Below, piece by piece: positions 10,036 through 64,000 of a DNA stretch of 64,000 nucleotides. Position numbers and translations under genes: made by a program. Every line of letters begins with the position of its first letter. Position 1 is the first letter of the stretch. A model generated the notes under the pieces. The model searched no databases and was not told the origin of the DNA. It worked only from the letters and a program-made list of their open reading frames with translations. The stretch is from a bacterium (GTDB lineage Bacteria > JAHJDO01). The stretch spans positions 3,841-67,840 of the forward strand of contig JAUSPT010000024.1 of the NCBI GenBank assembly GCA_030652805.1, given 5' to 3'.

Positions 10036-10037
10036 GA

Positions 10038-16061: not shown

Positions 16062-16075
16062 ATCTCAATTCTCTT

Positions 16076-22572: not shown

Positions 22573-23672
22573 TACAATAATTCTGTTTGCTGCGCCATTA
22601 TTCGTGCATCATAGTTTGATTTAATAAACTTGCTTGCATTTCTGCCCAGTTCATTTGCAAGACCTTCATTATCAAGAAGTTGTATTACAGCTTTTGCTAA
22701 CGATTCTGCGTCTTTGGAAGGGATTAATAAACCGGTCTTTCCATGTTCTATAATTTCTCTTATCCCATCTACATCCGTTCCTACAACTGGTTTCCCGAGA
22801 TACATTGCCTCAACAAGTACTCTTGGCAGTCCTTCAAACAATGAAGGCTGAACAATTATGTCACACATGAATATAACATTTGCAATGTCTTTTCTGTATC
22901 CAAGAAACCTTACATGTTTATGAATATTTAACTTTCTGCAAATACTCTCAAGATATTCTCTTGTTATGTTATCTTCTCCACATATTAGAAATGCAATATT
23001 TTTGTGTTCCTCTAATACTATTTTGCAAGCTTGAAGAAAATACAGATGTCCTTTTTTACCAATCTCTCTATTTCTAACTCTTGCAATTATACCAACCAGT
23101 TTCTCTCTCTCTTTATGAGTATCTATATCAACATTCAACCTCTCAAAATCAGTTCCATTAATAATATGGATTACTTTGCGTCCAGTTATTTTAATTTCTT
23201 GAAGCAGGTCTTTTTTTGTTGCATCAGAAACAGCGATAATCTTTCCTGATATATGCTTCAGGACAAATTTATAAAACCTGGCATTAAAGTTATTAACTCT
23301 TTCACCTTCCTGATTCATGTTGATACGGTCATGAATCGTCACAATATGTGGGATTCCCTGGATTAGAGATGCGACTGCGCCCAACAGATCCTCTCTTCTA
23401 TTGTGTGTGTGAATAATGTGGATGTTGTTCTCACGGATGATTCTCGTTATATTCTTTAATGAGCGGAAACTGAACTTAGATGTAATTTCATTGTATGCTA
23501 TTTCAAAGCCTTCATTCTTTAATACTGCTCCAAACTCACTATTCTCAGGAACTGCAGTAAGCACGCTGAATTTCTCCTTATCAAGATATTTTATAAGCGC
23601 TCTTATATGCTCCTCATTTCCGCCGAATACTCTTGAGTTTGATACCTGAAGTATGTTTATGCGTTGCTTCAT
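22551..23672 (-). CDS. Glycosyltransferase family 4 (GT4)
   Basis: EGLPRVLVEAMYLGKPVVGTDVDG C-terminal motif. 373 aa. Confidence 0.8.
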   Translation of the reverse strand: MKQRINILQVSNSRVFGGNEEHIRALIKYLDKEKFSVLTAVPENSEFGAVLKNEGFEIAYNEITSKFSFRSLKNITRIIRENNIHIIHTHNRREDLLGAVASLIQGIPHIVTIHDRINMNQEGERVNNFNARFYKFVLKHISGKIIAVSDATKKDLLQEIKITGRKVIHIINGTDFERLNVDIDTHKEREKLVGIIARVRNREIGKKGHLYFLQACKIVLEEHKNIAFLICGEDNITREYLESICRKLNIHKHVRFLGYRKDIANVIFMCDIIVQPSLFEGLPRVLVEAMYLGKPVVGTDVDGIREIIEHGKTGLLIPSKDAESLAKAVIQLLDNEGLANELGRNASKFIKSNYDARIMAQQTELLYQKLLVA

Positions 23673-47835: not shown

Positions 47836-49905
47836 ATGCAAATTGGAGATGTTAAAAAGATAAGAAATATCGGCATTATGGCTCATATTGATGCGGGTAA
47901 AACGACAACAACAGAAAGAATGCTATTCTTTGCAGGCAGGATACATCGCATAGGCGAAGTTCATGACGGGGCTGCTACAATGGACTGGATGGAACAGGAA
48001 AGAGAGAGGGGAATAACAATCACGTCTGCGGCCACAACATGTATCTGGCGTAAGCATCATATTAATATCATTGACACTCCAGGGCATGTAGATTTCACTG
48101 CAGAGGTAGAACGAAGTCTAAGGGTTTTAGATGGTGCAGTAGCAATATTTTGCGCAGTTGGCGGTGTAGAGCCGCAAACTGAAACTGTATGGAGGCAGTC
48201 GGAAAAATATAAAATTCCCAAGATTGTCTTTATTAATAAAATGGATAGAATTGGAGCAGATTTTTTTGCTGTACTTGAGATGATAGACAAGAAACTTGGA
48301 GTTAACTATGTGCCAATTCAGTTGCCTATTGGAAAGGAAGATAATTTTCATGGCATTATAGATATTGTGGAAGAAAAGGCATTTTTCTTCAATCCGGAAG
48401 ACGCTATGGAAGAGCCGAAAGAACGAGAAATTCCAGAAGACTATGTAAAGATGACGAAGAAATATAGAAATGAGCTAATAGAAAAACTTGCTGACACAGA
48501 TGACAGTCTCATGAATAAATATATTGAAAATCAGCCCATTACAATAGAGGAAATTAAGAATTCTCTTAACAAAGCAACTATAAAATCCGAGATATTCCCT
48601 GTGCTGTGCGGCGCAGCTTTCAAGAACAAGGGAGTCAGGAGGCTTATGGAAGCTGTTGTCGATTACCTGCCAAGTCCAGAAGAGGCCCCCCCTGTAGAAG
48701 TTATAGATAGTGATTCAGGAGAAAAGAGCCTGTTCAGTTTCGGAGAAAAAAAGGATTTATTGGGGCTCGCTTTTAAGATTGCTGTTGACCCTCATATTGG
48801 AAAACTTGTTTATTGCAGAATATATTCGGGTTCAATAAAACAAGGTGAATATGTTTTCAAGGCAGGGTCATCAAAGAAAGAAAGAATATCCCGTATTGTA
48901 AAGATGCACGCTAATAAAAAAGAAGCTGTGAATAGTCTCAGCGCAGGAGATATAGGAGCAATAATCGGGCCAATGAACATTACTACTGGAGATACAATAT
49001 GTAAACAAAATTCTAATCTTTTTCTCGAGAACATAGAATTTCCAACACCTGTAATTTCAGTGGCAATTGAAGCAAAGAACAAGATTGAGCAAGAGAAACT
49101 TTCGGATTCCATAAGAAAATTATCTAATGAGGACCCGACATTTAATTTCTTTTTTAATGAAGAGACATCCCAAACTATTCTTTCTGGTATGGGTGAACTG
49201 CATCTTGAGATCCTGGTAGATAGATTAAAGAGGGAGTTTAAAGTGTCTGCGAATGTAGGCAAGCCTAAAGTTGCTTTCAAGGAGACAATAACCAATATTC
49301 AGGAAGAAAAATACAAACATCAGAAGCAAACTGGTGGAAGAGGGCAATTTGCAGAAGTACACATAGAACTAATTCCTGCAAAGAGAGGTGAAGGGTTCGA
49401 ATTTATTAATGATATCAAGCAGGGAGCTATTCCAAGAGAATTTATTCCTGCTGTTGAAAAGGGCTGTATTGAGGCAATGGAAGCAGGAATTTTTGCGGGA
49501 TATCCTGTAATTGATGTAAAAGTAAGATTATTTGACGGAAGATTTCACGAAGTTGACTCTTCTGAAATAGCTTTTAAGGTAGCCGGGTACTATGCATTCA
49601 AAAGTGCGTTTATGAAGGCAGGTCCAAGGCTTGTTGAGCCGATTATGACAGTAGATATATCTACTCCGGAAGAGTATTTTGGTTCAATCATGTCTGATAT
49701 AACATCAAGAAGAGGTAAGATAATCCTGATAGAAAAAAAGGCTAAGAGCCAGTTAATAAAGGCTGAGGTTCCGCTTATGGAACTTTTCGGTTACGCTACA
49801 CAGCTGAGATCACTATCACAGGGACGAGCAACAGAGTCTATGCGGTTTGAAAGATATGACAAAGCTCCTCCGCATGTTGTCAGTAAAATAATAGAAGACA
49901 ATTAA
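47836..49905 (+). CDS. Elongation factor G paralog (EF-G2-like translational GTPase), stand-alone (not in an rpsL-rpsG-fusA context)
   Basis: G1 [10 protein letters not shown]3 DTPGH, G4 NKMD, and EF-G domains II-V. 689 aa. Confidence 0.85.
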
Positions 49906-52966: not shown

Positions 52967-54664
52967 ATGGAAGCAAGAAAAACAGGAATTGATATTTTAG
53001 GCAATAAGCCCTGGGGTACACACTTCTGCCAATTTTACCAGACCAAAAATGATTTAATTGATATTCTGGTGCCGTATTTTAAAGCGGGATTAGAAAATAA
53101 TGAATTTTGCATGTGGGTTACTTCAGAGCCTCTAAATGTTGAAGAAACAAAGGAATCGTTAAGAAAGGCTGTAAAAGACCTGGATAAGTATATCAAAAAA
53201 GGTCAGATAGAAATACTTGATTACAGCCAGTGGTATACCAAAGCAGGAAAATTCGAACAGGATAGGGTATTACAGGGCTGGGTCAAAAAGGAGAAGGAAG
53301 CCATAAAGAAAGGGTTTGACGGTCTCCGCCTCACAGGCAATACTTTCTGGCTTGAGAAAAAGGACTGGAAGAGTTTTGCTGATTATGAAGAAGTGGTAAA
53401 CAATGTTATAGGTAAATATAAAATGCTCGCAATCTGCACCTATTCCCTTGAAAAGTGCAATCTATTTAAAGTCCTGGATGTAGTCAAAAACCACCAATTC
53501 GCTCTCATACAGCGTGCAGGTAAATGGGAGATTATTGAAAGCGCCGAGCTCAGGAAGGCGGAGGAGGAGCTAAGGGAAAACGAAGAGAAGTATCGAGACT
53601 TGTGGGAGAACGTAAATGACCTTATTCAGAGCGTTAAACCAGATGGTACGTTTGTATATGTTAACCGTGCCTGGCGAGAAACTCTTGGGTATAATGAGAA
53701 AGAAATCCCAGATCTCTCGTTGTTGGATATCATTCATCCCGACAGTCATGCGCACTGTATGGAGATATTTAAGCGTTTGTTAGCTGGAGAAAAGGTCGAA
53801 TACATTGAAGCTGCGTTCCTGGCCAAGGATGGCAAGACAATTATGGTCGAGGGAAGCGCAAACTGTCGCTTCGTAGATGGCAAGCCTGTTACTACACGCG
53901 CTATTTTCCGTGATGTCACCGAGCGCAAGAAGGTGGAGAAGAGGAAATCGGAATTTCTTTCTCATGTATCCCACGCCTTAAGGACACCCTTGGCTTCGAT
54001 TAAATCCTTTGTAGAGATTCTCTTAAAGTACAAAGATGTGAATCCGACCGAACAAAGTGAGTTTCTGACTGTAATTAATAATGAAACTGACCGTTTAACT
54101 CGCCTGATAAATCAACTTTTAGATTTAGACAAGATAGAACAGGACGAGTTAAAATGGAAATTTGTGTCTTGTGATATCTCGAATATAGTTCAGAACGCAA
54201 TTAGTGAGCTAGAGCCATTGATACAAGAAAAAAATATTGTAGTTAATATGAATCTTCCTTCTCAGGATTTGATTGTTAATGGAGATAAAGATAGATTAAA
54301 TGAGGTGTTCATAAATCTAATAGGCAATGCAATTAAATTTACTCCTAGTAAGAGAGAGATTAGGATAACCGTTAAAAATAAAGGGAAAGTTGTCGAAGTC
54401 AGTATAGCTGATACAGGTATAGGAATACCCAAGGATGAGTTGACCAATATCTTTGAAAGGTTCAAGAGATTAGATAACTCCATTAATAGAAAGCTAACAG
54501 GAACAGGTTTGGGCTTATACATATGCAAGCAAATTATAGAAAAGCATGAAGGTAAGATTTGGGCTGAGAGCCATGGAAGTAAGGGTGCTAAATTTATTTT
54601 TGTCTTACCAAAGTATAAAGCTAAGTCAACTAAAAAGAGAATCGAACCCAAAAGAGGTTCATAG
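52967..54664 (+). CDS. Sensor histidine kinase with an N-terminal MEDS sensory domain, a PAS domain, HisKA and HATPase_c
   Basis: MEDS-type block (HFCQFYQTKNDLIDILVPYFKAGLENNEFCMWV). PAS (VNRAWRETLGYNEKEI). H-box SHVSHALRTPL. N/G1/G2 boxes (LIGNAIKFT, DTGIGI, GTGLGL). 565 aa. Confidence 0.8.
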   Translation: MEARKTGIDILGNKPWGTHFCQFYQTKNDLIDILVPYFKAGLENNEFCMWVTSEPLNVEETKESLRKAVKDLDKYIKKGQIEILDYSQWYTKAGKFEQDRVLQGWVKKEKEAIKKGFDGLRLTGNTFWLEKKDWKSFADYEEVVNNVIGKYKMLAICTYSLEKCNLFKVLDVVKNHQFALIQRAGKWEIIESAELRKAEEELRENEEKYRDLWENVNDLIQSVKPDGTFVYVNRAWRETLGYNEKEIPDLSLLDIIHPDSHAHCMEIFKRLLAGEKVEYIEAAFLAKDGKTIMVEGSANCRFVDGKPVTTRAIFRDVTERKKVEKRKSEFLSHVSHALRTPLASIKSFVEILLKYKDVNPTEQSEFLTVINNETDRLTRLINQLLDLDKIEQDELKWKFVSCDISNIVQNAISELEPLIQEKNIVVNMNLPSQDLIVNGDKDRLNEVFINLIGNAIKFTPSKREIRITVKNKGKVVEVSIADTGIGIPKDELTNIFERFKRLDNSINRKLTGTGLGLYICKQIIEKHEGKIWAESHGSKGAKFIFVLPKYKAKSTKKRIEPKRGS

Positions 54665-54681: not shown

Positions 54682-55368
54682 ATGGCTAAGAGAACAATCT
54701 TAGTAGTTGATGATGATCCTAATATCATTCAAGCGGTCTCTTTTGTTTTAAAAAAGGAAGGATATATAGTTACTACAGCTGTTGATGGAAAAGAAGCATT
54801 TAAAAAAGCTAAAGAAGAATTACCTCACCTAATTATTCTTGATGTTATGTTACCGAAACTGAGTGGATTTGAGGTCTGTAAACGATTAAAAGCTAATACT
54901 CAAACCAGAAAAATTCGTACTATTATGTTGACTGCTAGGAGTGAAGAAAAGGATAAAAGGTTGGGTGAGAAGTTAGGTGTGAATGCTTATATTACTAAAC
55001 CTTATAATATTGATGAGGTTCTATTTACAGTAAAGAGAGCTATAGAGAAAAAAGAATTACAGAGATCAATTGAAAAAATGAAAAAAGCAGCCTTGGTGGG
55101 GTATATGGGAGAGGCGATGTCTCATGAGATATTTAATCCTTTATCTGTTGTTTCTGGCTCCGTCCAACTTTTAATGAGCAGGATTAAAAAAGGCAAAAAG
55201 CTAACTACAAAAGAATATGAAGATTTCTTTAAAAATATTACTAAAAATGTAGAAAGGTGCATAGAGATTATAAATATTTTTAGGAAATTTTATGCATCTA
55301 TAGGCATTGAGATTAAGCCTAGAAATTTAGAAGAAACGTTAAGGGATATATTGGAAGGCAAGATATGA
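54682..55368 (+). CDS. Response-regulator receiver domain fused to a HisKA-like (DHp) domain, with no ATPase domain
   Basis: REC: ILVVDDDPNI...ILDVMLPKLSGFEV...KPY. C-terminal H-box-like MSHEIFNPLSVVSGSVQLL. 228 aa. Overlaps the next gene by ATGA. Confidence 0.65.
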   Translation: MAKRTILVVDDDPNIIQAVSFVLKKEGYIVTTAVDGKEAFKKAKEELPHLIILDVMLPKLSGFEVCKRLKANTQTRKIRTIMLTARSEEKDKRLGEKLGVNAYITKPYNIDEVLFTVKRAIEKKELQRSIEKMKKAALVGYMGEAMSHEIFNPLSVVSGSVQLLMSRIKKGKKLTTKEYEDFFKNITKNVERCIEIINIFRKFYASIGIEIKPRNLEETLRDILEGKI

Positions 55369-56438
55369 TTATGAGTAAAGAGTTTAGCAGAGCTCTGTTT
55401 GAGTACAATCCTATTGAAACCGTAGTCGTGGATTTGGAAGGAAGAATAATCGACTTTAATCTGGCAAAAAAGAACTCAGGGGATAGATTGCCCAATATTG
55501 GGGATGGGATGTACAAGGATTATGCAGCTCATCATGAGATTGACATGTATGCTGAATTGATAAAATGTATCAGAACAAGTAAGGTAAAAAAGTTTCCTGA
55601 GAAAAAATATAAAAAGAGGTTTCTATCCATAACAATAGCTCCCTTTCCCAAAGGGGCAATTATAACATCTCTAGATGTCACCGAGCACAAGAAAGAGACA
55701 GAAATAGAGAGGAAAAGAGCTACAGAGGCGAAAAAGGATTATGAACAACTACAAGCCAATAAGGACGATTTGATTCGCTCCGAGAAACTTGCCTTTACCG
55801 GCCGCATAGCCGCAAATATTGCTCATGAGATAAGAAATCCCCTGACCAATGTAGCTATGGCAGTCCAGCAGCTTGGGAAAACCATTAAACAGGAAGGACA
55901 CATTGCTAAACATATGGACATCATTAAAAGAAACACAGAAAGGATTAACTATTTAATTACTGAACTCCTAAATTGTGCCCGCCCGCCAAAACTTAATATA
56001 CAGCCATGTAATATTCATAAGGTATTAGAAGATATTTTAGAGTCCAACAAGACTAAGATTAGTTCAAAAAATATAAAGATAATTAAAAGGTTTACCTCTG
56101 ACACATTCATAATAAAGATTGATAAAGAACAAATGCAGCGTGCCTTCTTAAACATAGTCATCAATGCTATTGAAGCTATGCCCAAGAGAGGCAAATTGAC
56201 CATTATTACAGAGTTTAAGGGAAATCTTTTTGAGGTGAAGGTTCAAGATACAGGTAAAGGCATTCCTGAAGAAGATATTATCAGGATATTTGACCCTTTC
56301 TTTAGTTCCAAGTCCGGGGGTGTAGGCTTAGGATTGACTATATGTTATGGGATTATTGTGAGCCATGGCGGTACTATAGAGGTAGAAAGCAAGCCGAAAG
56401 AAGGGTCTATCTTTATGGTATCTTTGCCAATTGGGTAA
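55365..56438 (+). CDS. Histidine kinase (PAS-like N-terminus, HisKA, HATPase_c) with no obvious membrane segments
   Basis: H-box AHEIRNPLTNV; N box NAIEAM; G boxes DTGKGI and GVGLGL. 357 aa. Confidence 0.75.
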   Translation: MIMSKEFSRALFEYNPIETVVVDLEGRIIDFNLAKKNSGDRLPNIGDGMYKDYAAHHEIDMYAELIKCIRTSKVKKFPEKKYKKRFLSITIAPFPKGAIITSLDVTEHKKETEIERKRATEAKKDYEQLQANKDDLIRSEKLAFTGRIAANIAHEIRNPLTNVAMAVQQLGKTIKQEGHIAKHMDIIKRNTERINYLITELLNCARPPKLNIQPCNIHKVLEDILESNKTKISSKNIKIIKRFTSDTFIIKIDKEQMQRAFLNIVINAIEAMPKRGKLTIITEFKGNLFEVKVQDTGKGIPEEDIIRIFDPFFSSKSGGVGLGLTICYGIIVSHGGTIEVESKPKEGSIFMVSLPIG

Positions 56439-56547
56439 AGATCAAAAGTTAGAAAAAGTAAAATTTTGAGATAAAAAAGGCACAAAGTGACAAAGGCGCA
56501 AAAGATGCTCGTTTACATAACGGAGAGTGAATATAAACTCACCCTGA

Positions 56548-56598
56548 CCCTCTCTTGAGTAGAGAGGGAATGTTCCCCTTCTCTGTCAAGAGAAGGGG
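56548..56598 (+). other. Two adjacent GC-rich stem-loops (CCCTCTC-N7-GAGAGGG; CCCCTTCTCT-N4-AGAGAAGGGG) in the 210-nt intergenic region
   Basis: Read directly in the sequence; no T-tract follows. Candidate RNA element or attenuator between the kinase gene and the DUF4339-REC gene. Confidence 0.4.
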
Positions 56599-56648
56599 CG
56601 AGGGGATGAGTTGAGTTCACTAAATATTTACGACGACGGAGTGTAATA

Positions 56649-57257
56649 GTGGAAATAAAATATGATATTAGAAGAGGCGCAGATATATATCGGGCAATTT
56701 ATGGAGCTCGATTACAGAAATGGATTCTTGCAGGTAAGATAAAGCGAGGAGAAGTAATTGTCTGGCGAAGCGGTCTTTCAGGCTGGCGCAAAGCCGAAGA
56801 ACTTGAAGAACTGGCGCCATTTTTTGAACAGTGGGAAAAAGAACAATTAAGAGAAACAAAGAGGCAAAAAGAGCAAGTCTTCTTAAGGAAGAAACAGAAG
56901 AAGATAAAGAATATTTTGATAATAGACGATGAGAAGGATTTGTGTTCGCTCCTGTCTGACGCCTTAATCCAGAGAAACTACAATGTATCGATTGCAAACA
57001 CAAAAAGAGAAGCTATGGCTTATCTTAAAAAGAAATCACCTGATTTAGTTCTGTTAGACCTAAAACTACCTGATGGCGATGGAATAAAAATCCTTCCTAG
57101 GATCAAAAGGGTAAATCCAGAGACAGTAGTGATTGTAATTTCTGCCTATGGAAGCGAAGAAAGCAGACAAATGGCAAAAAAGGGAGGAGCTTTTACCTTT
57201 ATAAACAAGCCGTTTACTGAAGAAGATATATTAAGGAGTATAAAAGTACTCTCATAA
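56649..57257 (+). CDS. Single-domain response regulator with an N-terminal DUF4339 (GYF-like) domain
   Basis: DUF4339-like IYGARLQKWILAGKIKRGEVIVWRSGLSGWRKAEEL, then REC (ILIIDDEKDL ... LLDLKLPDGDG ... KPF). 202 aa. Confidence 0.65.
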   Translation: MEIKYDIRRGADIYRAIYGARLQKWILAGKIKRGEVIVWRSGLSGWRKAEELEELAPFFEQWEKEQLRETKRQKEQVFLRKKQKKIKNILIIDDEKDLCSLLSDALIQRNYNVSIANTKREAMAYLKKKSPDLVLLDLKLPDGDGIKILPRIKRVNPETVVIVISAYGSEESRQMAKKGGAFTFINKPFTEEDILRSIKVLS

Positions 57258-57268
57258 CAGAGGGCAGC

Positions 57269-58648
57269 ATGGAGACGATTCTAATAGTAGATGATGAGAA
57301 GGACTTGCGTTTTAATCTTTCCAACATTTTGAAGGACGAAGGTTACAACGCAATCGCTGTGGGAGACGGAAGGAAAGCGCTTAATGCAGTTAAGAAAAAT
57401 TCTCCCAATTTGGTCCTGCTGGATATGAAGCTTCCTGAAATGGATGGGATGCAGATTCTAGAGAAGATGAAGCTGATTGATAAGGATTTGATTATTATAA
57501 TGCTTACTGCTTATGGAAATCTAAATGGAGCGGTAAAAGCAATGAAATTAGGGGCATTTGACTATCTTGCCAAGCCTTTTGATAATGAAGAATTAATTCT
57601 TGTAATAAAAAGGGCTCTTCGGACCCAATATTTAGCCAAGGAAGTAGAAACTCTAAAAAAACGGGTTGGTGAAAAAATTACAGCAGAAGAGCTAATGGGA
57701 GAAAGCCCTCAAATAAAGCAAGTCTTAAAACAGATTAAGATAATTGCTCCGACCAATATGACTGTAATACTTCAAGGTGAAAGCGGAACAGGCAAGGAAT
57801 TGATTGCTCAGATGATCCATCAGGAAAGTCCGCGAAAAAATGACCCTTTTATTGCTATAGACTGTGGCGCAATTCCCGATACATTGGCTGAGAGTGAACT
57901 CTTTGGTCATGAGAAAGGCGCCTTTACAGGAGCTGATGCTCAAAAAGAAGGCAGGTTTGAAGAGGCTAATGGAGGAACTCTGTTTCTGGATGAGATTACA
58001 AATCTCTCTTCTACTACGCAGAGAAAACTTCTCAGAGTGATACAGGAAAGAAGGCTTCAGCATATAGGCGGCAAGAGAAGTATAAAAGTTGACGTCAGAA
58101 TAATCGTGGCTACGAACATTAATCTCTCAGGCGCGGTAAGGCGGGGTAAATTTAGAGAGGACCTCTTCCATAGGTTAAATGAATTTCATATTTCACTTCC
58201 CCCGCTTCGGGAAAGAAAAGATGACATCCCCCATTTAGCCATGCGTTTTTTGGGGGGAGGAAATCAGGAATTAAATAAAAAAATAGAAGGGTTTTCTTCT
58301 GATGTAATGAAATTGCTTCTGGATTATCCCTGGCCGGGCAATGTTAGAGAATTAAAGAATGTAGTCAGAAAAGCAGTGCTTCTGTGCGATTCCAATCATA
58401 TCAAACCGGAACACTTTCCATTAGATAATATTGCTTCCACTAAAAAGCTTGAATTTCAGCAGGATTTGGATAAAGGAGTCTCCCTCAAAGAGATAACTAA
58501 AAAAGCGACAGGACAGATAGAAAAGGAAGCTATTGAGCAAGCACTGGCAAAAGCCGGCGGCAATAAAAGTAAAACCGCCAAAATCCTCAAAATAGACCGC
58601 ATGACCCTCTATTCTAAGATGAAGGAATATCAGATACGTAGACTGTAA
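57269..58648 (+). CDS. Sigma-54-dependent transcriptional activator (NtrC family: REC, AAA+ sigma-54 interaction domain, Fis-type HTH)
   Basis: REC (ILIVDDEKDL...LLDMKLPEMDG). Walker A GESGTGKE, GAFTGA motif, ESELFGHEKGAFTGA, Walker B LFLDEI. C-terminal HTH (AGGNKSKTAKILKIDRMTLY). 459 aa. Confidence 0.9.
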   Translation: METILIVDDEKDLRFNLSNILKDEGYNAIAVGDGRKALNAVKKNSPNLVLLDMKLPEMDGMQILEKMKLIDKDLIIIMLTAYGNLNGAVKAMKLGAFDYLAKPFDNEELILVIKRALRTQYLAKEVETLKKRVGEKITAEELMGESPQIKQVLKQIKIIAPTNMTVILQGESGTGKELIAQMIHQESPRKNDPFIAIDCGAIPDTLAESELFGHEKGAFTGADAQKEGRFEEANGGTLFLDEITNLSSTTQRKLLRVIQERRLQHIGGKRSIKVDVRIIVATNINLSGAVRRGKFREDLFHRLNEFHISLPPLRERKDDIPHLAMRFLGGGNQELNKKIEGFSSDVMKLLLDYPWPGNVRELKNVVRKAVLLCDSNHIKPEHFPLDNIASTKKLEFQQDLDKGVSLKEITKKATGQIEKEAIEQALAKAGGNKSKTAKILKIDRMTLYSKMKEYQIRRL

Positions 58649-58720
58649 ATCGTATATCGTATACAGCACACGGCTAACGAAATACGGACGACGAAATACG
58701 AAATACAGCATGCAAAGCGC

Positions 58721-58793
58721 TGTAGAATAGAGTCTACACTATATAAAGGAACACGTAGGGTTGTTGTAAAATAAATTCTACACAGATGTAGAA
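58721..58793 (+). promoter_or_regulatory. Two palindromes with TGTAGA/TCTACA half-sites (TGTAGAatagagTCTACA; TTCTACAcagaTGTAGAA), 120-190 bp upstream of the sigma-54 promoter; candidate enhancer (UAS) sites
   Basis: Read directly at 58721-58738 and 58776-58793. Their position relative to the -24/-12 element is typical for bacterial enhancer-binding-protein sites. Confidence 0.5.
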
Positions 58794-58910
58794 ACAACTC
58801 TACGCTTTTTGCCTTTAAATTTCCTCTGCTTTTAAGCTCCTCAGAATTCTTTCAAAAGATATTTTTAAAAAAGAGGATACGCAAGCCGAAATTTTTTTTA
58901 GCAGATACTT

Positions 58911-58925
58911 TGGCACGGAATTTGC
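58911..58925 (+). promoter_or_regulatory. Sigma-54 (-24/-12) promoter TGGCACG-GAAT-TTGCT upstream of gvpA
   Basis: Exact match to the TGGCACG-N4-TTGCW consensus, with the GG and GC dinucleotides separated by 10 nt. An NtrC-family activator gene sits immediately upstream. Confidence 0.75.
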
Positions 58926-58934
58926 TTTTACAAT

Positions 58935-59022
58935 ACAGATGGTCGCAGATGAAAAATCGCAGATGGGTACAGATGTTCAATCTGCGCTGGTCTGTGAAAA
59001 TAATCTGCGCTAATCTGTGAAA
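58935..59022 (+). repeat. Array of 8 heptamer/octamer repeats in the predicted gvpA 5' leader: 4x (A/CG)CAGATG forward, then 4x ATCTG(CGC/TGAAA) inverted
   Basis: Sequence read directly: ACAGATGgtCGCAGATGaaaaatCGCAGATGggtACAGATGttcAATCTGCGCtggTCTGTGAAAataATCTGCGCtaATCTGTGAAA. Confidence 0.7.
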
Positions 59023-59039
59023 GAGGGGAGGTGGAAAAA

Positions 59040-59246
59040 ATGGCAGTAGAAAAAGCAATCGGTTCATCTAGTTTGGTTGAGGTTATTGACAGAATCCTTG
59101 ACAAGGGTGTTGTGGTTGATGCATGGGTTAGAATTTCTTTAGTTGGTATTGAATTACTCGCTATTGAAGCAAGAGTCGTAGTCGCATCAGTCGAGACATA
59201 CCTGAAGTATGCTGAAGCAATTGGTCTAACCGCAACAGCAGCTTAA
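59040..59246 (+). CDS. gvpA: Gas vesicle structural protein GvpA
   Basis: [68 protein letters not shown] is nearly identical in pattern to canonical GvpA (…[27 protein letters not shown](L/I)L(A/T)IEARVVIASV(E/D)[11 protein letters not shown]…). RBS GGAGG 9 nt upstream of the ATG at 59040. The ORF track's GTG start at 59031 is less likely. Confidence 0.97.
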
Positions 59247-59288
59247 GTATAGTTTAAAAAAAGGATTCTTGCCGAGCCACCCTTTTGA

Positions 59289-59372
59289 GCGCAGATTGGC
59301 GCAGATGTAAAAGACAGATGCACACAGAGAAATCTGTGATAATCAGCGTAAAAAAATCAGTGTTAATCTGTG
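59289..59372 (+). repeat. Second cluster of the same CAGATG/ATCTGTG repeats immediately 3' of gvpA (GCGCAGAT, GCGCAGATG, ACAGATG, 2x ATCTGTG)
   Basis: Sequence read directly: gaGCGCAGATtgGCGCAGATGtaaaagACAGATGcacacagagaaATCTGTGataatcagcgtaaaaaaatcagtgttaATCTGTGg. Confidence 0.65.
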
Positions 59373-59435
59373 GTTTAAACAGCATGGTTCGCCAAGAGAT
59401 TCCTTTTTCCGTTCTGAGAAAAAAGGGGTAAAATT

Positions 59436-60134
59436 ATGGGAAGTGCCGAGGAAATGAAGAATTTGGCGCAAGGAATTGTTTCTTCTTATCAGGCCAGAGT
59501 TTCTGAAGTAGCCACGGTCATGGACAATGCTCACCAAATTCTTGAAGATTTTAAGCTCAAAAGAAGTGAGATGAGCAGTCAACTTAGAGAAACCCTTGCC
59601 AATGGAGAGTCTCTCAGAAAAAAGGATTTTGATAATATGATGAAAGGCATCCTTTCCCATCAAGAAGAAAGAGAAAAAGAGGTAAAAGATTTATTAAAGA
59701 CTTTTTTTGAAGAACAAAAAGAAATAGCTGAAGCCATTAGGAAGAATTTGGCCGAAGGCGAAAGCGTGAGAATAAGTGATTTTAAAAAGATGCTCCAGGA
59801 TATTCAGGCAAGGCAGAAACTCAGGGAAAATGAAGTAAGAACGACCCTAAAGGAATTTCAGGAAGGACATAGGGAGATGGCTGAGTCTTTGCACAGCCTT
59901 TTAAATAAAGAAGAGTCCTTACGGATTGAGGACTTTAAAGAGATGCTAAAAGATATTCGTTCAAGACAGATAGAGCGGAAAAAAGAAGTCAGAACCAAAC
60001 TTGATGAATTCAGGAAAGAACATCAAAATATGACTTCCGAATGGAATAAACTAACCGGTCTTATGGCCGAGAAAAGAGCCAGCAAGCTGAGAGGAGGTGA
60101 GAGAGAGGAAAAGTTGGAAGTTGCCAGGGTTTAA
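59436..60134 (+). CDS. Repeat protein (three ~50-aa repeats, consensus L..GES.R..DFK.ML.DI..RQ..RE.EV...L.EF...H.EM) of unknown family; candidate gas-vesicle-associated protein
   Basis: Good RBS (AAAAGGGG). Repeats identified by eye in the translation (SQLRETLANGESLRKKDFDNMM…; RKNLAEGESVRISDFKKML…; HSLLNKEESLRIEDFKEML…). Shares its N-terminal ~40 aa and repeat type with the next gene. 232 aa. Confidence 0.6.
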   Translation: MGSAEEMKNLAQGIVSSYQARVSEVATVMDNAHQILEDFKLKRSEMSSQLRETLANGESLRKKDFDNMMKGILSHQEEREKEVKDLLKTFFEEQKEIAEAIRKNLAEGESVRISDFKKMLQDIQARQKLRENEVRTTLKEFQEGHREMAESLHSLLNKEESLRIEDFKEMLKDIRSRQIERKKEVRTKLDEFRKEHQNMTSEWNKLTGLMAEKRASKLRGGEREEKLEVARV

Positions 60135-60204
60135 TTTTGGATCCTGGGTAAGTAACCTGATGTATGGGAACTAAGAAACTAGAAGTTTAAGAGGAGGAAT
60201 AAAG

Positions 60205-61236
60205 ATGGGAATAGCAAGTGATATCAAAGCACTGGGTGAGGACATTGTTGCCTCTTATGATACGCGAGTAAGGGCGATAGGTGTGCTTGTCAAGGACGTC
60301 GACAAAATGCTTAAGGGTCTTCATACGGATCATAAGAGTATGGCTGCCAATCTTAAAGCTGGCCTTAACAAGGGAGAAGAAGATAGGCTCAATGCCTTTA
60401 AGCCAATGATAGCAGAAATTCAGAAGCGGACAAAGGAAATAGAAGTCTATGTTAAAACTCTGCTCAAAAAGTTTCACAGCGAGCATATGGAAATGTCTGC
60501 CAATCTTAATGCCTCTCTTGCAAAAGGAGAAGAGGATCGACTTAAGGACTTTAGAGCAATGATGGCTGATGTTAAGAAGTTTGTAGCGGATATGGTTGAT
60601 ACGACTGCGAAACTGATGAAGCAAATTCAGGCTGAACAGAAAGATAGAAATAAAGGAGTAGCTGATCTCCTTGCAAAGTTTGCGCAAGACCATGCATCTA
60701 TGGCAGATGAGCTTAGAAAAAGCCTTGCAAAAGGAGAAACAAACAGGCTTGAAGACTTCAAAAAGATGATAGATAGTATCCAAAAATATGTGGCTGATGT
60801 AATTAGTGCGACTAAGCAGCTAATTAGCGAAATTCAAGCAAGGCAGGATGAGAGAAACAAAGAGGTTCTTGCTCTCTTACAGGCATTCCAGGCCGAAAGA
60901 GAAAAGATGGCTGCTAACTGGCAGGCTCTGGCTGCAACAATGGAGAAGAGAAGAGGCGGTAAGCCGATTCCAGTTAAAGTAGAAGCCAGGCAGGAAGTAA
61001 AGACTGTTGAAGAGGCAGTGAAAGAAAAACCCAAAGCTAAACCTAAGGCTGGGCCTAAACCCAAAACACCTGAAGGTCAGATATTAGCTTTGCTTAGGGA
61101 GCATGCTGAAGGCATGAGCTTGCCGAATTTAGGAAATGAAGCAGGCTGCCACTTTATAAAGCTGACCAGTCCAATGAGAGGTCTGCTGGATAAAGGCAAA
61201 GTTAGAAAAGAAGATAATCTTTACTTTATTGCTTAG
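60205..61236 (+). CDS. Paralogous repeat protein (three longer repeats of the same L.KGEEDRL.DFK.M family), with a Lys/Pro-rich linker (KPKAKPKAGPKPKTP) and a C-terminal winged-helix-like domain
   Basis: RBS AGGAGGAATAAAG. Repeats ANLKAGLNKGEEDRLNAFKPMI…, ANLNASLAKGEEDRLKDFRAMM…, RKSLAKGETNRLEDFKKMI…. C-terminal GQILALLREHAEGMSLPNLGNEAGCHFIKLTSPMRGLLDKGKV resembles a wHTH. 343 aa. Confidence 0.6.
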   Translation: MGIASDIKALGEDIVASYDTRVRAIGVLVKDVDKMLKGLHTDHKSMAANLKAGLNKGEEDRLNAFKPMIAEIQKRTKEIEVYVKTLLKKFHSEHMEMSANLNASLAKGEEDRLKDFRAMMADVKKFVADMVDTTAKLMKQIQAEQKDRNKGVADLLAKFAQDHASMADELRKSLAKGETNRLEDFKKMIDSIQKYVADVISATKQLISEIQARQDERNKEVLALLQAFQAEREKMAANWQALAATMEKRRGGKPIPVKVEARQEVKTVEEAVKEKPKAKPKAGPKPKTPEGQILALLREHAEGMSLPNLGNEAGCHFIKLTSPMRGLLDKGKVRKEDNLYFIA

Positions 61237-61252
61237 TGAATGGAGGTGAAAG

Positions 61253-61573
61253 ATGAGCGAGATAAAATGTGCTTTCTGCAAAGGCACGGGCAAGGATCCA
61301 TTTGATCTTCTATCCGAGCTTGCTGTCTGCCAGGTTTGCGGAGGCAGGGGTAAAGTTGAGGTAAAAGAGCCGGCAATCAAGTGTGTCTTTTGTAGCAGCA
61401 CCGGTATCTATCCTCGTAGTCGAGTTACCTGCACTGTATGTAATGGCAAAGGAATGGTTGCGGTTAAAGGCGCGACTGACGAGTGCCCTAAGTGCAAAGG
61501 CACAGGCAGAGCAATAGATAGCGGACTTCCCTGCATTAAATGTGGAGGCAAAGGGGTCGTTTCAAAAAAATGA
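61253..61573 (+). CDS. DnaJ-type zinc-finger mini-protein with six CxxCxGxG motifs (three zinc-centre pairs) and no J-domain
   Basis: CAFCKGTG, CQVCGGRG, CVFCSSTG, CTVCNGKG, CPKCKGTG, CIKCGGKG read in the translation. RBS GGAGGTG. 106 aa. Confidence 0.75.
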   Translation: MSEIKCAFCKGTGKDPFDLLSELAVCQVCGGRGKVEVKEPAIKCVFCSSTGIYPRSRVTCTVCNGKGMVAVKGATDECPKCKGTGRAIDSGLPCIKCGGKGVVSKK

Positions 61574-61755
61574 CTGAATTAAACTCCTCCAGGGAAGACT
61601 TTCTTAGAAAAAGAAAGGAAGCGTTAGATAAGTTGAGTTCCTGCCGGGAAGGTTTTAGAAGGAAGGAGAAGAGAATAAAAGCGGATTTGGCAGAGGCGGG
61701 CAAGACTTGGGAGAAAGTGAGCCAAAAGTTCAAGTGGTGGCAGTCTCTGCCCTAG
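61570..61755 (+). CDS. Small basic hypothetical protein (61 aa from the ATG overlapping the upstream stop; the ORF track starts it at 61540)
   Basis: ATGA overlap with the preceding gene suggests translational coupling. No family recognised. Confidence 0.3.
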   Translation: MTELNSSREDFLRKRKEALDKLSSCREGFRRKEKRIKADLAEAGKTWEKVSQKFKWWQSLP

Positions 61756-61795
61756 AGGAAAAGAAAACAAAAATCAAAAAAGGAGGTAAGATAAG

Positions 61796-62716
61796 ATGGC
61801 AGCTGTTGAGGAGATGACCACAGTACTTGAACCAAGTCCTTTATCAGACTTTGTGGAAACAAAGTATGTGAAGGATGTCACTAATCGGACACTTTCCTAT
61901 ATTAAGGCCGGTTTTCCGGTCCATTTTCGAGGTCCTTCAGGGACAGGAAAGACCACTCTGGCTATGCATGTAGCCAGTAAGGTTAAAAGGCCGGTGGTAA
62001 TGATTCACGGGGATGAAGAGTTTACAACCTCTGATTTGGTGGGTGGTGAACATGGCTACAGGTTTAGAAAGGTTGTAGACAGATTTGTCTCCAGGGTGTT
62101 GAAAGTGGAAGAAGATATGGTAAAGCGCTGGGTGGATAACCGTTTAACGGTTGCCTGTAAGTATGGTTTTACCCTTATCTATGATGAATTCACACGTTCC
62201 CGTCCTGAGGCAAACAATATTCTTCTCTCTATTTTGCAGGAGAAGATGATGGATCTGCCAGTGGGAAGAGGCGGAGAAGAACCGTATTTAAAGGTTGACC
62301 CTGATTTTACCGCTATTTTCACATCAAACCCTGAGGAATATGCCGGAGTTCATCGGAGTCAGGACGCTCTTAGGGACAGAATGATAACCATGGATTTGGA
62401 CCATTTTGATTATGATACGGAAATAGGTATTACCAGGGCAAAATCCAAACTCTCTAAACAAGATTCTGAGAGGATAGTTAATATTGTAAGAGGATTGAGG
62501 GAATCAGGAAAGTGTGAGTATGCACCAACCGTACGCGGCTGTATTATGATTGCTAAGACGCTTAAAGTTCTGGGCACTGCTCCTGCTAAGAGTAATGGTT
62601 CCTTCAGCGCGATGTGTCAGGACATATTGGCTTCTGAGACCAGTAGAGTTGGCTCAAAGACGAATCAGGACAGGGTAAAGGGGATAGTTAAGGAGTTGGT
62701 TAAGAAATATAGTTAA
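61796..62716 (+). CDS. gvpN: Gas vesicle protein GvpN (MoxR/CbbQ-like AAA+ ATPase)
   Basis: Walker A GPSGTGKTTLA, Walker B LIYDEFTRS, ~300-aa length and gvp context. RBS AAGGAGG. Confidence 0.85.
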   Translation: MAAVEEMTTVLEPSPLSDFVETKYVKDVTNRTLSYIKAGFPVHFRGPSGTGKTTLAMHVASKVKRPVVMIHGDEEFTTSDLVGGEHGYRFRKVVDRFVSRVLKVEEDMVKRWVDNRLTVACKYGFTLIYDEFTRSRPEANNILLSILQEKMMDLPVGRGGEEPYLKVDPDFTAIFTSNPEEYAGVHRSQDALRDRMITMDLDHFDYDTEIGITRAKSKLSKQDSERIVNIVRGLRESGKCEYAPTVRGCIMIAKTLKVLGTAPAKSNGSFSAMCQDILASETSRVGSKTNQDRVKGIVKELVKKYS

Positions 62717-62794
62717 AAGACAGAGGGCAGAAGGCAGAAAGCAGAAAAATCTGCTCTCAGAAATCTGGTTTCTGAATAAGAGAGGAGAAAGAAA

Positions 62795-62965
62795 ATGACA
62801 CTGATGAGGACGTTTTCTAAAGTGGAAAAAGATGGGAAGATAAAACTTCCCGGTAATATTCAGCGAGCAGCAGGTCTTAAAGAAGGCCAGTTGATTGAGC
62901 TGAAGATTGTAGGAGCAAGCAGGAAGAAGAATATCTTGCTCTCGGCTAAAGATAGCGCAAGATAG
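62795..62965 (+). CDS. AbrB/SpoVT/MazE-type swapped-hairpin DNA-binding mini-protein (56 aa; below the ORF-track cutoff)
   Basis: Hand translation: MTLMRTFSKVEKDGKIKLPGNIQRAAGLKEGQLIELKIVGASRKKNILLSAKDSAR*. The KVxKxGxIxLPxxIRxxLGLKEGDxLE pattern is typical of the AbrB/SpoVT N-terminal domain. RBS AGAGGAG. Confidence 0.6.
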   Translation: MTLMRTFSKVEKDGKIKLPGNIQRAAGLKEGQLIELKIVGASRKKNILLSAKDSAR

Positions 62966-63000
62966 GTCTGTAAGTTTCTCACATTATAAGGGAGAGAACA

Positions 63001-63336
63001 ATGAAGGATGTTAATAGTCTGCCGGGACTCCATAAGTTGAGGACTATGTTTAGTGCCAAGAAGAGGTCCATACCAAAGGTTCAAAGCTCGGGTTATTTAG
63101 ATTTGTATATGCTCGGGAAAGAGAAAGAGAGACTCCTGAAGGAAGATGAGAGGCTGGATATGAGAAAAGACACTCTCAAGAAGCGCCTGGAGGAGATAGA
63201 CCTGGAGATGAATCAACTACAGGAGGTCTCGAAAAGCGGGATTAAATCTGCTCCGGACATAGGTTTTTCAGGAGGCACTTTCACGCAGAAAAATGGAGTC
63301 AAAAAAGAGTGGAAAAAGATGTCTTTAAATTATTAA
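63001..63336 (+). CDS. Hypothetical protein; weak resemblance to GvpG (hydrophobic YLDLYML segment followed by a charged coiled coil)
   Basis: ORF with RBS (GGGAGAGAACA). GYLDLYMLGKEKERLLKEDERL...RLEEIDLEMNQLQE is reminiscent of GvpG but not verified. 111 aa. Confidence 0.35.
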   Translation: MKDVNSLPGLHKLRTMFSAKKRSIPKVQSSGYLDLYMLGKEKERLLKEDERLDMRKDTLKKRLEEIDLEMNQLQEVSKSGIKSAPDIGFSGGTFTQKNGVKKEWKKMSLNY

Positions 63337-63351
63337 CAACTGCATAGGTGG

Positions 63352-63750
63352 TTGAGAATGAATTGGAACACATTTGACTTTAAAAGCGGGAAAAGCGGAA
63401 GAACCAGGTCAGGACGAAGGATAGGTGAGATTTTGGAAGGGGATAAGTTTAGATGTTCATTATGCAGAGGCACAGGGATATTACCCCGAACCAAGGGCAC
63501 AAGATGTCATGTATGTAAAGGCTCAGGCATAGTTTCCTTAACCGGACCGGCAGTAGTATGCGCTTACTGCAAAGGCAGAGGCGATTATCCGCCGAGGACA
63601 AGTCTTACCTGTACGGTTTGCGGAGGGAAGGGTTTAGTTAGCATTACCAAACCCATTGAAATATGCGAACATTGCCGGGGAACCGGTGCTGAGCCGGGCA
63701 ATAAACTACCTTGCTTAAAATGCAAAGGTAAGGGTGTGATTACAAAATAG
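63352..63750 (+). CDS. Second DnaJ-type zinc-finger mini-protein (six CxxCxGxG motifs), paralog of 61253-61573
   Basis: CSLCRGTG, CHVCKGSG, CAYCKGRG, CTVCGGKG, CEHCRGTG, CLKCKGKG. 132 aa. Confidence 0.75.
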   Translation: MRMNWNTFDFKSGKSGRTRSGRRIGEILEGDKFRCSLCRGTGILPRTKGTRCHVCKGSGIVSLTGPAVVCAYCKGRGDYPPRTSLTCTVCGGKGLVSITKPIEICEHCRGTGAEPGNKLPCLKCKGKGVITK

Positions 63751-63767
63751 AAATCGGGAGAGAGACT

Positions 63768-64000
63768 ATGAAAATAGAAGAAGTAGAGAAGGCGATCACA
63801 GATTTCTTTAAGAGCAGTCTTGGTGGAAAGGCAAAAGTAATAAAGATAGTAAAATCTCAGGATGGCTGGACAGGTGAGGCAGAGATTTATGAGGAGAGTT
63901 CATTTATTAAATCTTTAGGACTATCTACCAGAGTTCAGGATAGGAATATTTACGGGATTAAATTGACTGATGCCTTGGAAGTGGTCTCTTACGCGCGAAA
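63768..64000 (+). CDS. Hypothetical protein, 5' fragment (continues beyond the window); possibly a further gvp accessory gene
   Basis: ATG at 63768 with RBS GGGAGAGAG. MKIEEVEKAITDFFKSSLGGKAKVIKIVKSQDGWTGEAEIYEES…, no stop before the window end. Confidence 0.4.
   Translation, partial: MKIEEVEKAITDFFKSSLGGKAKVIKIVKSQDGWTGEAEIYEESSFIKSLGLSTRVQDRNIYGIKLTDALEVVSYAR

Follow-up and report, generated by a model that had tools for sequence, protein, structure and literature searches.

The stretch of bacterial DNA described here (the window: 64,000 nt of contig JAUSPT010000024.1, analysed as a whole) ends in a gas-vesicle (gvp) locus. From position 52967 to the end of the window, every gene is encoded on the + strand and the genes are tightly packed (Table 1). 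Four genes for kinases and receiver-domain proteins and a gene for an NtrC-type activator are followed by a putative sigma-54 promoter, by gvpA between two predicted RNA hairpins, and by genes for two repeat proteins (named RepA and RepB here), a zinc-finger protein (Znf1), a basic 61-aa protein, GvpN, an AbrB-like protein, a 111-aa protein (p111), a second zinc-finger protein (Znf2) and, cut by the window end, a GvpO-like protein. We consider it likely that the region covers the half of a sigma-54-dependent gas-vesicle operon that lies next to the promoter, and that this operon belongs to a widespread and horizontally exchanged class found in uncultured, mostly anaerobic bacteria.

Table 1. 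Features of the gas-vesicle locus and of the regulatory genes ahead of it (positions within the window; L083/L084 is the most closely related metagenome contig pair; MFE, minimum free energy; HTH, helix-turn-helix)
Feature	Position	Strand	Basis
MEDS-PAS histidine kinase	52967-54664	+	Pfam
REC-HisKA protein	54682-55368	+	Pfam
PAS histidine kinase	55365-56438	+	Pfam
GYF-REC response regulator	56649-57257	+	Pfam
NtrC-type sigma-54 enhancer-binding response regulator (REC, AAA+, Fis-type HTH)	57269-58648	+	Pfam
Three imperfect palindromes TGTAGA-N6-TCTACA	58721, 58765, 58787 (span 58721-58804)	+	repeat family D4
Putative sigma-54 (-24/-12) promoter TGGCACGGAATTTGCT	58911-58926	+	strict pattern match
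Long hairpin, predicted 5' end of gvpA mRNA	58934-59019	+	MFE -41.4 kcal/mol, z = -6.9
gvpA, major gas-vesicle shell protein, 68 aa	59040-59246	+	PF00741, NF006874, PDB matches
Second long hairpin, gvpA-RepA spacer	59274-59390	+	MFE -40.4 kcal/mol, z = -4.0
RepA, 232-aa charged all-helical protein, gvpC position	59436-60134	+	repeats, AlphaFold model
RepB, 343-aa RepA paralogue	60205-61236	+	repeats of 51/69/69 aa
Znf1, 106-aa stand-alone DnaJ-type zinc finger	61253-61573	+	PF00684 2.7e-11, 44 bits
61-aa basic protein	61570-61755	+	called as 61 aa in L083/L085
gvpN, AAA+ (AAA_5) ATPase	61796-62716	+	TIGR02640 1.3e-101
56-aa AbrB/SpoVT/MazE-fold (swapped-hairpin) protein	62795-62965	+	family profile A1
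p111, 111-aa coiled-coil protein	63001-63336	+	family clustering, structure model
Znf2, 130-aa zinc finger, basic N-terminal extension	63358-63750	+	PF00684 3.6e-13, 50 bits
5' part of GvpO-like gene, cut by window end	63768-64000	+	93.5% identical to L083/L084 proteins

The two genes that define the locus are clear. The gvpA open reading frame (ORF) extends from 59031 to 59246, with the real ATG at 59040, and its product matches PF00741 (2e-16) and NF006874 (1e-38, 131 bits against a cutoff of 100) as well as the structures 8gbs (1.3e-30) and 7r1c (5.6e-24) in the PDB. By a hand count from the alignment, 56 of its 68 residues (about 82%) are identical to GvpA of Anabaena flos-aquae (PDB 8gbs). 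GvpN passes the TIGR02640 equivalog model with 339.5 bits (cutoff 266.8) and is 80-89% identical to the GvpN proteins of 80 loci from GTDB genomes, 51% identical to that of Methylosinus and 40-43% identical to haloarchaeal ones. An earlier, sequence-only reading of this DNA had already described a gvpA close to the cyanobacterial gene and a gvpN, together with two repeat proteins, two proteins with a six-fold CxxCxGxG motif, an AbrB-like mini-protein and a basic 61-aa protein; our analysis found all of them in the places given there. Two items of the region go beyond that list, namely p111 and the GvpO-like last ORF.

A scan for GvpN in one genome per GTDB species yielded 222 relatives, the best 80 of which (those 80-89% identical) were fetched as loci. 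Together with one Logan contig (L001), they form the 81 fetched loci to which our counts refer; many of these loci are cut by contig ends, and family sizes include the window's own proteins. Comparison of the loci by ORF calling, BLAST and clustering revealed a recurring gene order. It starts with (kinases/regulators)-GvpA-RepA-RepB (1 to 4 paralogues)-Znf-(61-aa family)-GvpN-(AbrB-like)-p111-(Znf)-(GvpO-GvpJ-like), continues with Hsp20-ArsA-like ATPase-Cdc48-like double AAA+-GvpL/F with a C-terminal J domain-GvpF-GvpF-GvpG-GvpO-GvpF and ends with GvpJ/GvpK-small protein-GvpJ-like-about 200-aa protein. According to Pfam, the syntenic loci hold three to four GvpF/L copies as well as GvpG, GvpO and GvpJ/K in their downstream part. 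Of the 49 loci that extend beyond Cdc48, 44 encode next a GvpL/F protein that bears a J domain with its HPD motif intact (examples are L021 16811-17959, L011 16681-17808 and L038 16112-17245), and the combination of J-domain GvpL/F proteins with free zinc fingers looks like a split DnaJ.

The closest relative of the window is a pair of ENA metagenome contigs, L083/L084, in which the gene order is identical and the encoded proteins are nearly so (AbrB-like protein 100%, Znf2 97%, GvpN 96%, GvpO fragment 93.5%, RepB 93% and RepA 88% identical). Past the point that corresponds to the window end, these contigs encode GvpO and a 98-aa PF00741 (GvpJ-like) protein, and further on two small proteins that are winged-helix-like by eye, a zinc-ribbon protein and a third six-motif zinc finger. 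The small winged-helix-like proteins of the relatives were recognised by eye only and have no Pfam match. Taken together, the relatives define a conserved, widespread and largely undescribed class of gvp clusters, which is found in at least 80 species-level genomes with about 15 phylum labels, rather than the variant of one low-GC genome that the sequence-only reading had assumed. Its expectation that the canonical assembly genes lie downstream is borne out by proxy, with the start of a GvpO-like gene in the window itself, a GvpJ-like gene in L083/L084 and GvpF/L, GvpG and GvpJ/K genes in the 80 syntenic loci.

Individual loci of this class carry additional genes. In L079, a Volactin-family actin homologue (PF25216, E 5e-93) and a small winged-helix-like partner are encoded between GvpF genes (9509-10997), and such a pair is also found in L006, L008, L028 and L038; the presence of such an actin in a gvp cluster hints at cytoskeletal positioning of vesicles. 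At 18845-19450, L055 encodes a 201-aa protein in which a GvpA/J-type (PF00741) and a GvpK (PF05121) domain are fused, an arrangement that recurs in several loci. About a dozen loci contain a gene for a membrane protein of about 235-250 aa with MscS-type transmembrane-helix repeats (PF05552), located before gvpA or before a zinc-finger gene (for example, L021 6747-7505 and L055 8437-9138); the window has no such gene.

The control elements of the locus are packed into the 391 nt that separate the activator gene from gvpA. A search of both strands of the 64-kb window with the strict pattern TGGCAY-N5-TTGCW gave a single match, TGGCACGGAATTTGCT, which is located 263 nt downstream of the activator gene and 114 nt before the gvpA ATG (130 nt when counted from its first base). 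The activator contains the domains PF00158 (7e-71, 237.8 bits), PF00072 (3.5e-31) and PF02954 (HTH_8, 1.8e-15), and a GAFTGA loop can be read in its translation. The three imperfect palindromes lie 107-190 nt upstream of the promoter match and are putative binding sites of the activator. Three palindromes at matching 44/22-nt spacing are also present in L002, a sister genome in which the activator protein is 97% identical, and palindromes occur in pairs behind the orthologous activators of L027 and L003. Homologous kinase and regulator genes lie ahead of gvpA in many related loci. The PAS kinase and GYF-REC genes (from 55377 on) are 91-93% identical to L002 at the DNA level; as L002 begins at its contig end, the MEDS-PAS kinase and REC-HisKA genes lie outside that comparison.

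Of 22 loci in which an activator is encoded upstream, 10 have a sigma-54-like site within 350 nt of gvpA, compared with 3 of 35 loci that lack the activator. Predicted sigma-54 control of gvpA, which the sequence-only reading had also proposed, is thus well supported by the unique promoter match, the adjacent activator gene, the co-occurrence of promoter and activator among relatives and the conserved palindromes. Many relatives, of a type labelled Planctomycetota, possess a MEDS kinase and a receiver protein and neither an activator nor a sigma-54 site; sigma-54 control therefore appears to be a feature of a subtype.

The host and the cluster seem to have different histories. Among 5.8 billion protein clusters, elongation factor G (EF-G) of the window (47836-49905) has two relatives at 92-93% identity, after which identity drops to 58% or less, with mixed phyla; because of this drop, the host is best placed in a deep-branching, barely sampled lineage. 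The window also encodes a formate-tetrahydrofolate ligase. In contrast to EF-G, GvpN is 80-89% and GvpA 90-99% identical to genes in metagenome-assembled genomes (MAGs) labelled Planctomycetota, Omnitrophota, Nitrospirota, Nitrospinota, Elusimicrobiota, Desulfobacterota, Cloacimonadota, Bacteroidota/Ignavibacteria, Desantisbacteria, Sumerlaeota, Saganbacteria, Chrysiogenota, Bacillota and others. The GC content of the related loci ranges from 33 to 61%, and the gvp genes have the highest GC content in the window.

L002 is informative in this respect. Its kinase, regulator and activator DNA is 91-96% identical to that of the window, and identity is 82% over the promoter and gvpA, absent over RepA/RepB, 83% in gvpN and absent thereafter. 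When L002 1-7254 is set against window positions 55377-62715, no alignable RepA/RepB genes, AbrB-like gene or second zinc-finger gene are seen. This mosaic indicates that a structural cassette was probably replaced behind a conserved regulator. As GvpN is 80-89% identical across phylum labels while EF-G reaches at most 58% outside its two relatives, the cluster class shows signs of horizontal mobility. The phylum names of the relatives are the submitters' labels and may include binning errors, so the number of phyla should be taken as a maximum; these labels play no part in the EF-G contrast or in the L002 mosaic.

In the related loci, RepA is always encoded directly after gvpA. It contains three 51-aa repeats, which are anchored on the motif G-E-S-x-R-I-x-D-F (G-E-x-x-R-[LI]-x-D-F in the family), and an AlphaFold model based on 56 homologues consists of four helices of 45-53 residues joined at the anchor motifs (pLDDT 68). 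RepA homologues form more than 120 clusters at 63-90% identity, all of them unnamed or with unrelated automated names. Foldseek comparison of the model with the PDB returned generic helical bundles only (best E 0.09), the RepA profile had no meaningful match among PDB sequences, and neither RepA nor Znf2 had a match in 72,556 plasmids. RepB is about 32% identical to RepA, as judged from the L083 orthologues, and has in addition a linker rich in Lys and Pro and, at its C-terminus, a conserved domain of about 55 aa, which is kept in nine RepB-type proteins of other loci and is winged-helix-like by eye only. Both proteins are hydrophilic (grand average of hydropathy -1.0 for RepA and -0.54 for RepB). 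Their family comprises about 160 proteins in the fetched loci, including some PAS-domain ORFs that were lumped in by the clustering, and there are one to four copies per related locus. The 61-aa protein, for which an isoelectric point of 10.6 was computed from the 71-aa ORF, begins with an ATG that overlaps the Znf1 stop codon as ATGA, and its family has about 32 members in the fetched loci. Long forms of this family share the N-terminal head of RepA (hhalign of profiles A2 and A3: probability 79%, E 1.7e-5), and RepA, RepB and the 61-aa protein therefore form one family.

RepA and RepB have several traits of GvpC: they are encoded directly downstream of gvpA, they are hydrophilic and they consist of helical repeats. 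Neither of them matches the GvpC family PF01304 at E values up to 0.1, and PF01304 is absent from the 25 families most often matched by 120 members of the RepA/RepB family. Sub-threshold matches to Apolipoprotein A1/A4/E (PF01442) were seen in 44 of these 120 proteins and to ApoLp-III in 30 of them, which fits long amphipathic helices that bind a surface and is no evidence of homology. The lack of similarity to GvpC and the weak amphipathicity leave room for a different role, in which the three proteins would serve in the cytoplasm as scaffolds or as adaptors for positioning, clustering or tethering the vesicles, or would be regulators that act via the winged-helix-like C-terminal domain of RepB. 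The linker and conserved C-terminal domain of RepB speak for such a role, as do the Volactin-type actins and small winged-helix-like proteins of several related clusters, which hint at a positioning apparatus. We nevertheless regard it as doubtful, since cyanobacteria and Serratia have their gvpC in this slot, directly behind gvpA and ahead of gvpN, since the tandem helical repeats are charged and hydrophilic like those of GvpC, and since a copy number of one to four is what would be expected for structural paralogues. Our preferred interpretation remains that the three proteins most likely bind the shell exterior as GvpC-like stiffeners or scaffolds.

Znf1 and Znf2 both exceed the PF00684 cutoff of 32.7 bits and contain exactly six CxxCxGxG motifs each. 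DnaJ and BSD2 have four such motifs and anti-TRAP has two; six motifs imply three putative zinc centres per protein. The ATG of Znf2 at 63358 is preceded by an AGGTGG ribosome-binding site (RBS). In the fetched loci, the zinc-finger family comprises 76 proteins from 50 loci, 66 of which have exactly six motifs, with up to three paralogues per cluster. Neither Znf1 nor Znf2 contains a PF00226 J domain or a client-binding domain, and both reach about 40 bits with the DnaJ equivalog models, the cutoffs of which are above 330. They also match BSD2_CRD, more weakly than PF00684, and the Anti-TRAP models PF15777 (33 and 39.5 bits, cutoff 32) and NF058604 (about 1e-9).

These Anti-TRAP matches, along with the small size and basic character of the two proteins, could mean that the zinc fingers are anti-TRAP-like regulators that inactivate GvpN, the activator or an RNA-binding factor. 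We think this unlikely: the Anti-TRAP and DnaJ zinc-finger models overlap on one and the same CxxCxGxG motif, Znf1 and Znf2 have six of these motifs and not two, and the setting is rich in chaperones (J-domain GvpL/F, Hsp20, ArsA-like ATPase and Cdc48). In addition, up to three paralogues per cluster fit a diversity of clients better than a single switch. We rather propose that Znf1 and Znf2 act as holdase-type assembly chaperones for the aggregation-prone GvpA and GvpJ proteins, comparable to BSD2 for Rubisco.

The remaining small genes follow gvpN. Profile A1 of the AbrB-like family matches PDB entry 2glw (2.6e-9), SpoVT (1.2e-4) and AbrB (0.007-0.03). PF04014 was detected in 17 of 24 family members, and the copy of the window taken alone falls below Pfam detection. 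Clustering assigned about 25 proteins to this family, and similar ORFs (p56-like) are present in about 30 loci.

The p111 gene follows gvpN in nearly all 81 loci, and its family has 73 members there. The protein has a conserved N-terminal RSIP..YLDLYML motif, a long coiled-coil helix, a disordered linker and a conserved C-terminal KKEWKKMxLNY motif; its structure model contains one confident long helix (residues 31-79). A HMMER pass over 1.84 billion representative proteins returned 461 clusters, all of about 100-130 aa. Relatives of p111 are labelled 'hypothetical', 'ankyrin' or 'TOPRIM nuclease' by the sources, which are not real annotations, and the ten distant representatives that were checked are all metagenomic and have no informative name (one 'hypothetical protein', nine nameless). 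A hidden Markov model of p111 built from 324 relatives gave 18.9 bits with the 108-aa protein encoded after gvpN in Methylosinus, compared with a maximum of 6.1 bits in 2000 shuffles; by hhalign, the same pair has an E value of 0.0034 and a probability of 9.5%. With moderate confidence, we regard p111 as a probable homologue of the protein in the GvpV position.

Relatives of the GvpO-like protein in L083/L084 are 85-89 aa long. Against PF05800 (cutoff 25), family members from L079 and L021 reach 27.6 and 21.5 bits, respectively, and the 77-aa fragment of the window alone has no match in Pfam or NCBIfam scans.

The hairpin upstream of gvpA ends just ahead of a free RBS, GAGGGGAGGTGG, and is built from the repeats CAGATGG..CAGATG and AATCTGCGC..TCTGTG; none of 200 shuffled sequences was as stable. 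The hairpin in the gvpA-RepA spacer shares motifs with it (repeat families D1-D3, inverted repeats I7/I14/I21), so that gvpA is bracketed by two related structures with the repeats CGCAGAT/ATCTGCG and ACAGAT/ATCTGT. The idea of a genome-wide repeat element was rejected, as the core motif is confined to these sites within the 64 kb, and an Rfam search of positions 58500-64000 assigned neither hairpin to a family. The hairpins probably stabilise the gvpA-containing segment of the mRNA and thereby raise the ratio of GvpA to its helpers.

Several observations weigh against our interpretation of the locus. All relatives in the cluster class are MAGs or metagenome contigs, and the genes downstream of position 64000 are known from the loci of these relatives and not from the window's own contig, a MAG contig of 101,049 bp in NCBI (locus tags Q7J67_01465 and Q7J67_01495). 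Exact look-ups of the window's proteins yielded a single Logan contig of 1.9 kb, and an exact 40-mer scan of the JGI metagenomes had no match. The phylum labels may, as mentioned above, include binning errors. A recognisable sigma-54 site near gvpA is present in only 10 of the 22 activator-bearing loci, and the hairpin trend is weak across relatives (the median z is about -1.6, and about 20% of the values are below -3). RepA and RepB have no sequence or fold relation to GvpC, and their hydrophobic moment is marginal (z 0 to 2.6), for which reason it was not used as evidence. Zinc binding and a chaperone role of Znf1 and Znf2 are proposed by analogy. Finally, the link between p111 and GvpV consists of the 18.9-bit score and the gene position, and the score was obtained against the Methylosinus protein, not against Serratia GvpV.

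The cluster could also be silent or decaying, with no vesicles formed in its host, as reported for some clusters of Streptomyces and for Anabaena PCC 7120. Gas-vesicle clusters frequently stay cryptic under laboratory conditions (PMC7204071), and most tested gvp clusters failed in E. coli (PMC10344784), which counts in the same direction. Here, all eleven ORFs of the region are intact and closely spaced, and their starts are coupled; the protein sequences are strongly conserved across many hosts, and the dedicated promoter and activator are intact, which makes a silent cluster quite improbable. That the small interleaved genes are unrelated passengers in a canonical cluster, for instance an AbrB/MazE antitoxin remnant and stray zinc-finger genes, is hardly credible despite the antitoxin-typical fold and the missing gvp annotation of these genes, because it is contradicted by synteny across the related loci: order and orientation are kept in hosts of 33-61% GC (73 members for p111, at least 50 loci for the zinc fingers, about 25 members for the AbrB-like protein), the AbrB-like gene has no toxin partner, and starts overlap neighbouring stops.

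Returning to the likely operon, we propose the following mechanism. A phosphorelay of the MEDS-PAS kinase, the further kinases and the receivers would activate the NtrC-type regulator, which would bind the three TGTAGA-N6-TCTACA sites and open the sigma-54 promoter. The 5' stem-loop and the related stem-loop after gvpA could then stabilise the gvpA segment, so that more shell protein than helper protein is made. The shell would be built from GvpA and be covered by the RepA/RepB family as described above. GvpN and p111 might drive the growth from bicones to cylinders, as in Serratia. Znf1 and Znf2 could cooperate with the J-domain GvpL/F, Hsp20, the ArsA-like ATPase and Cdc48, which are encoded downstream in the relatives, and the split DnaJ, made up of the zinc finger and the J domain on GvpL/F, would bring in the Hsp70 of the host. 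For the AbrB-fold protein, we speculate that it is a small DNA-binding regulator or an adaptor module.

More tentatively, and as a possibility rather than an expectation, the class might be a self-contained, horizontally mobile gas-vesicle kit with its own proteostasis machinery. In such a kit, a split DnaJ would recruit host Hsp70 to nascent GvpA and GvpJ, Hsp20 and the Get3/ArsA-like and Cdc48-like proteins would serve as backup, and the 51-residue-repeat family would replace GvpC. If this is true, the possession of own chaperones would explain how near-identical clusters can work in hosts of about 15 phylum labels, including the small-celled Omnitrophota, and buoyancy control would be common in anoxic groundwater and sediment bacteria. 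For ecology, the findings imply that buoyancy organelles may be common among uncultured anaerobes, in lineages not previously credited with this trait. Gas vesicles serve as acoustic reporter genes, and most natural clusters do not work after transfer to another host (PMC10344784). A class that has apparently moved between very different bacteria together with chaperone-like genes offers itself as a source of components for vesicle expression that can be carried from host to host, and the six-motif zinc fingers, the J-domain GvpL/F proteins and the repeat family are candidates for the factors that keep the hydrophobic GvpA soluble, deliver it to the growing shell and reinforce the shell without GvpC.

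Some genes elsewhere in the window deserve mention. On the - strand, positions 43628-45553 encode an APC-family amino-acid permease with a C-terminal PtsN/PTS-IIA-like nitrogen-regulatory domain, an unusual fusion that sits in a genome using sigma-54 regulation. In a type I restriction-modification pair (13647-18628, - strand), an HsdR-like enzyme is joined by a methyltransferase similar to both HsdM and the MAD2 defence methylase, and two adjacent membrane proteins of 726 and 742 aa (23669-28074, - strand) have Agl23-like flippase-associated N-terminal regions.

One of the closest known counterparts of the locus is found in Serratia sp. ATCC 39006, in which gvpA1 is expressed from a sigma-54 promoter under the control of the NtrC-like regulator GvrA (PMC4982088, Tashiro et al. 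2016). The Serratia cluster has the order gvpA1-gvpC-gvpN-gvpV-gvpF1-gvpG and so on, plus gvrA/B/C, and loss of gvpN or of the following gene, gvpV, arrests vesicles as bicones (PMC4982088). The window resembles it in the order gvpA-repeat protein-gvpN-small protein, in the pairing of GvpN with the next small protein, and in having an in-locus NtrC-family regulator, two-component partners and a predicted sigma-54 promoter for gvpA. As differences, Serratia possesses a recognisable GvpC and lacks DnaJ-type zinc-finger, AbrB-like, ArsA-like and Cdc48-like genes; in the window, the regulators are located upstream in the same orientation.

A second similarity concerns the gvp clusters with ArsA and Hsp20 genes described for Pelodictyon luteolum, Polaribacter irgensii and Geobacter uraniireducens (Castillo and Saier 2010, PMC2963123). 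Like these, the relatives of the window carry hsp20, an arsA homologue, gvpN, several L/F genes, G, J, K/M and O. The gvp-linked ArsA protein has two domains and about 600 aa in PMC2963123, and a single domain and about 311 aa in the relatives of the window. For its clusters, PMC2963123 lists no zinc-finger, AbrB-like or repeat-protein gene and no J-domain fusion. Plasmid pMSC49b of Methylosinus sp. C49 (NZ_AP022334.1) carries a Serratia-like gvp cluster and also has a sigma-54-dependent regulator, a PAS protein and a response regulator upstream, followed by gvpA-hypothetical-gvpN-108-aa hypothetical-GvpF, G, J, H and a CDC48-family ATPase. It differs from the window in a GvpN of 51% identity and in the absence of zinc-finger and AbrB-like genes, and a kinship of RepA with the protein encoded between gvpA and gvpN on this plasmid was rejected (E 0.41). 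Anabaena flos-aquae shares with the window the similar GvpA (about 82% identical) and, between gvpA and gvpN, a gene for a hydrophilic protein with helical repeats. The repeats of cyanobacterial GvpC (PF01304) are 33 residues long, as compared to 51-69 residues in RepA and RepB, and there are no zinc-finger or AbrB genes among the accessory genes of cyanobacteria (J, K, F, G, V and W).

Accordingly, the gvp cluster as such, sigma-54/NtrC control, the gvpA-repeat-gvpN-small protein layout, the link to Hsp20/ArsA and the link to CDC48, which is annotated in Methylosinus, are already known. Of these, sigma-54/NtrC control was described in PMC4982088 and the Hsp20/ArsA module in PMC2963123. The new accessory complement that the sequence-only reading had seen holds for genes without a match in curated gvp models: the AbrB-like gene, the six-motif zinc fingers and the repeat proteins have no counterpart among the gvp models of Pfam and NCBIfam and can be called non-canonical. 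The p111 protein probably corresponds to the one in the GvpV position. In a literature search that covered few subscription journals and is thus weak evidence, zinc-finger, repeat and AbrB genes were not described for gvp clusters, and neither the GvpL/F-J-domain fusion nor the sharing of GvpN at 80-89% identity among uncultured phyla was found described.

The zinc fingers, finally, have their closest analogues outside the gas-vesicle field. Znf1 and Znf2 share CxxCxGxG repeats with plant BSD2, Bacillus anti-TRAP and the Cys-rich domain of DnaJ, and BSD2 and anti-TRAP, like them, have no J domain; unlike BSD2 and anti-TRAP, Znf1 and Znf2 contain six motifs and are encoded within a gvp operon.

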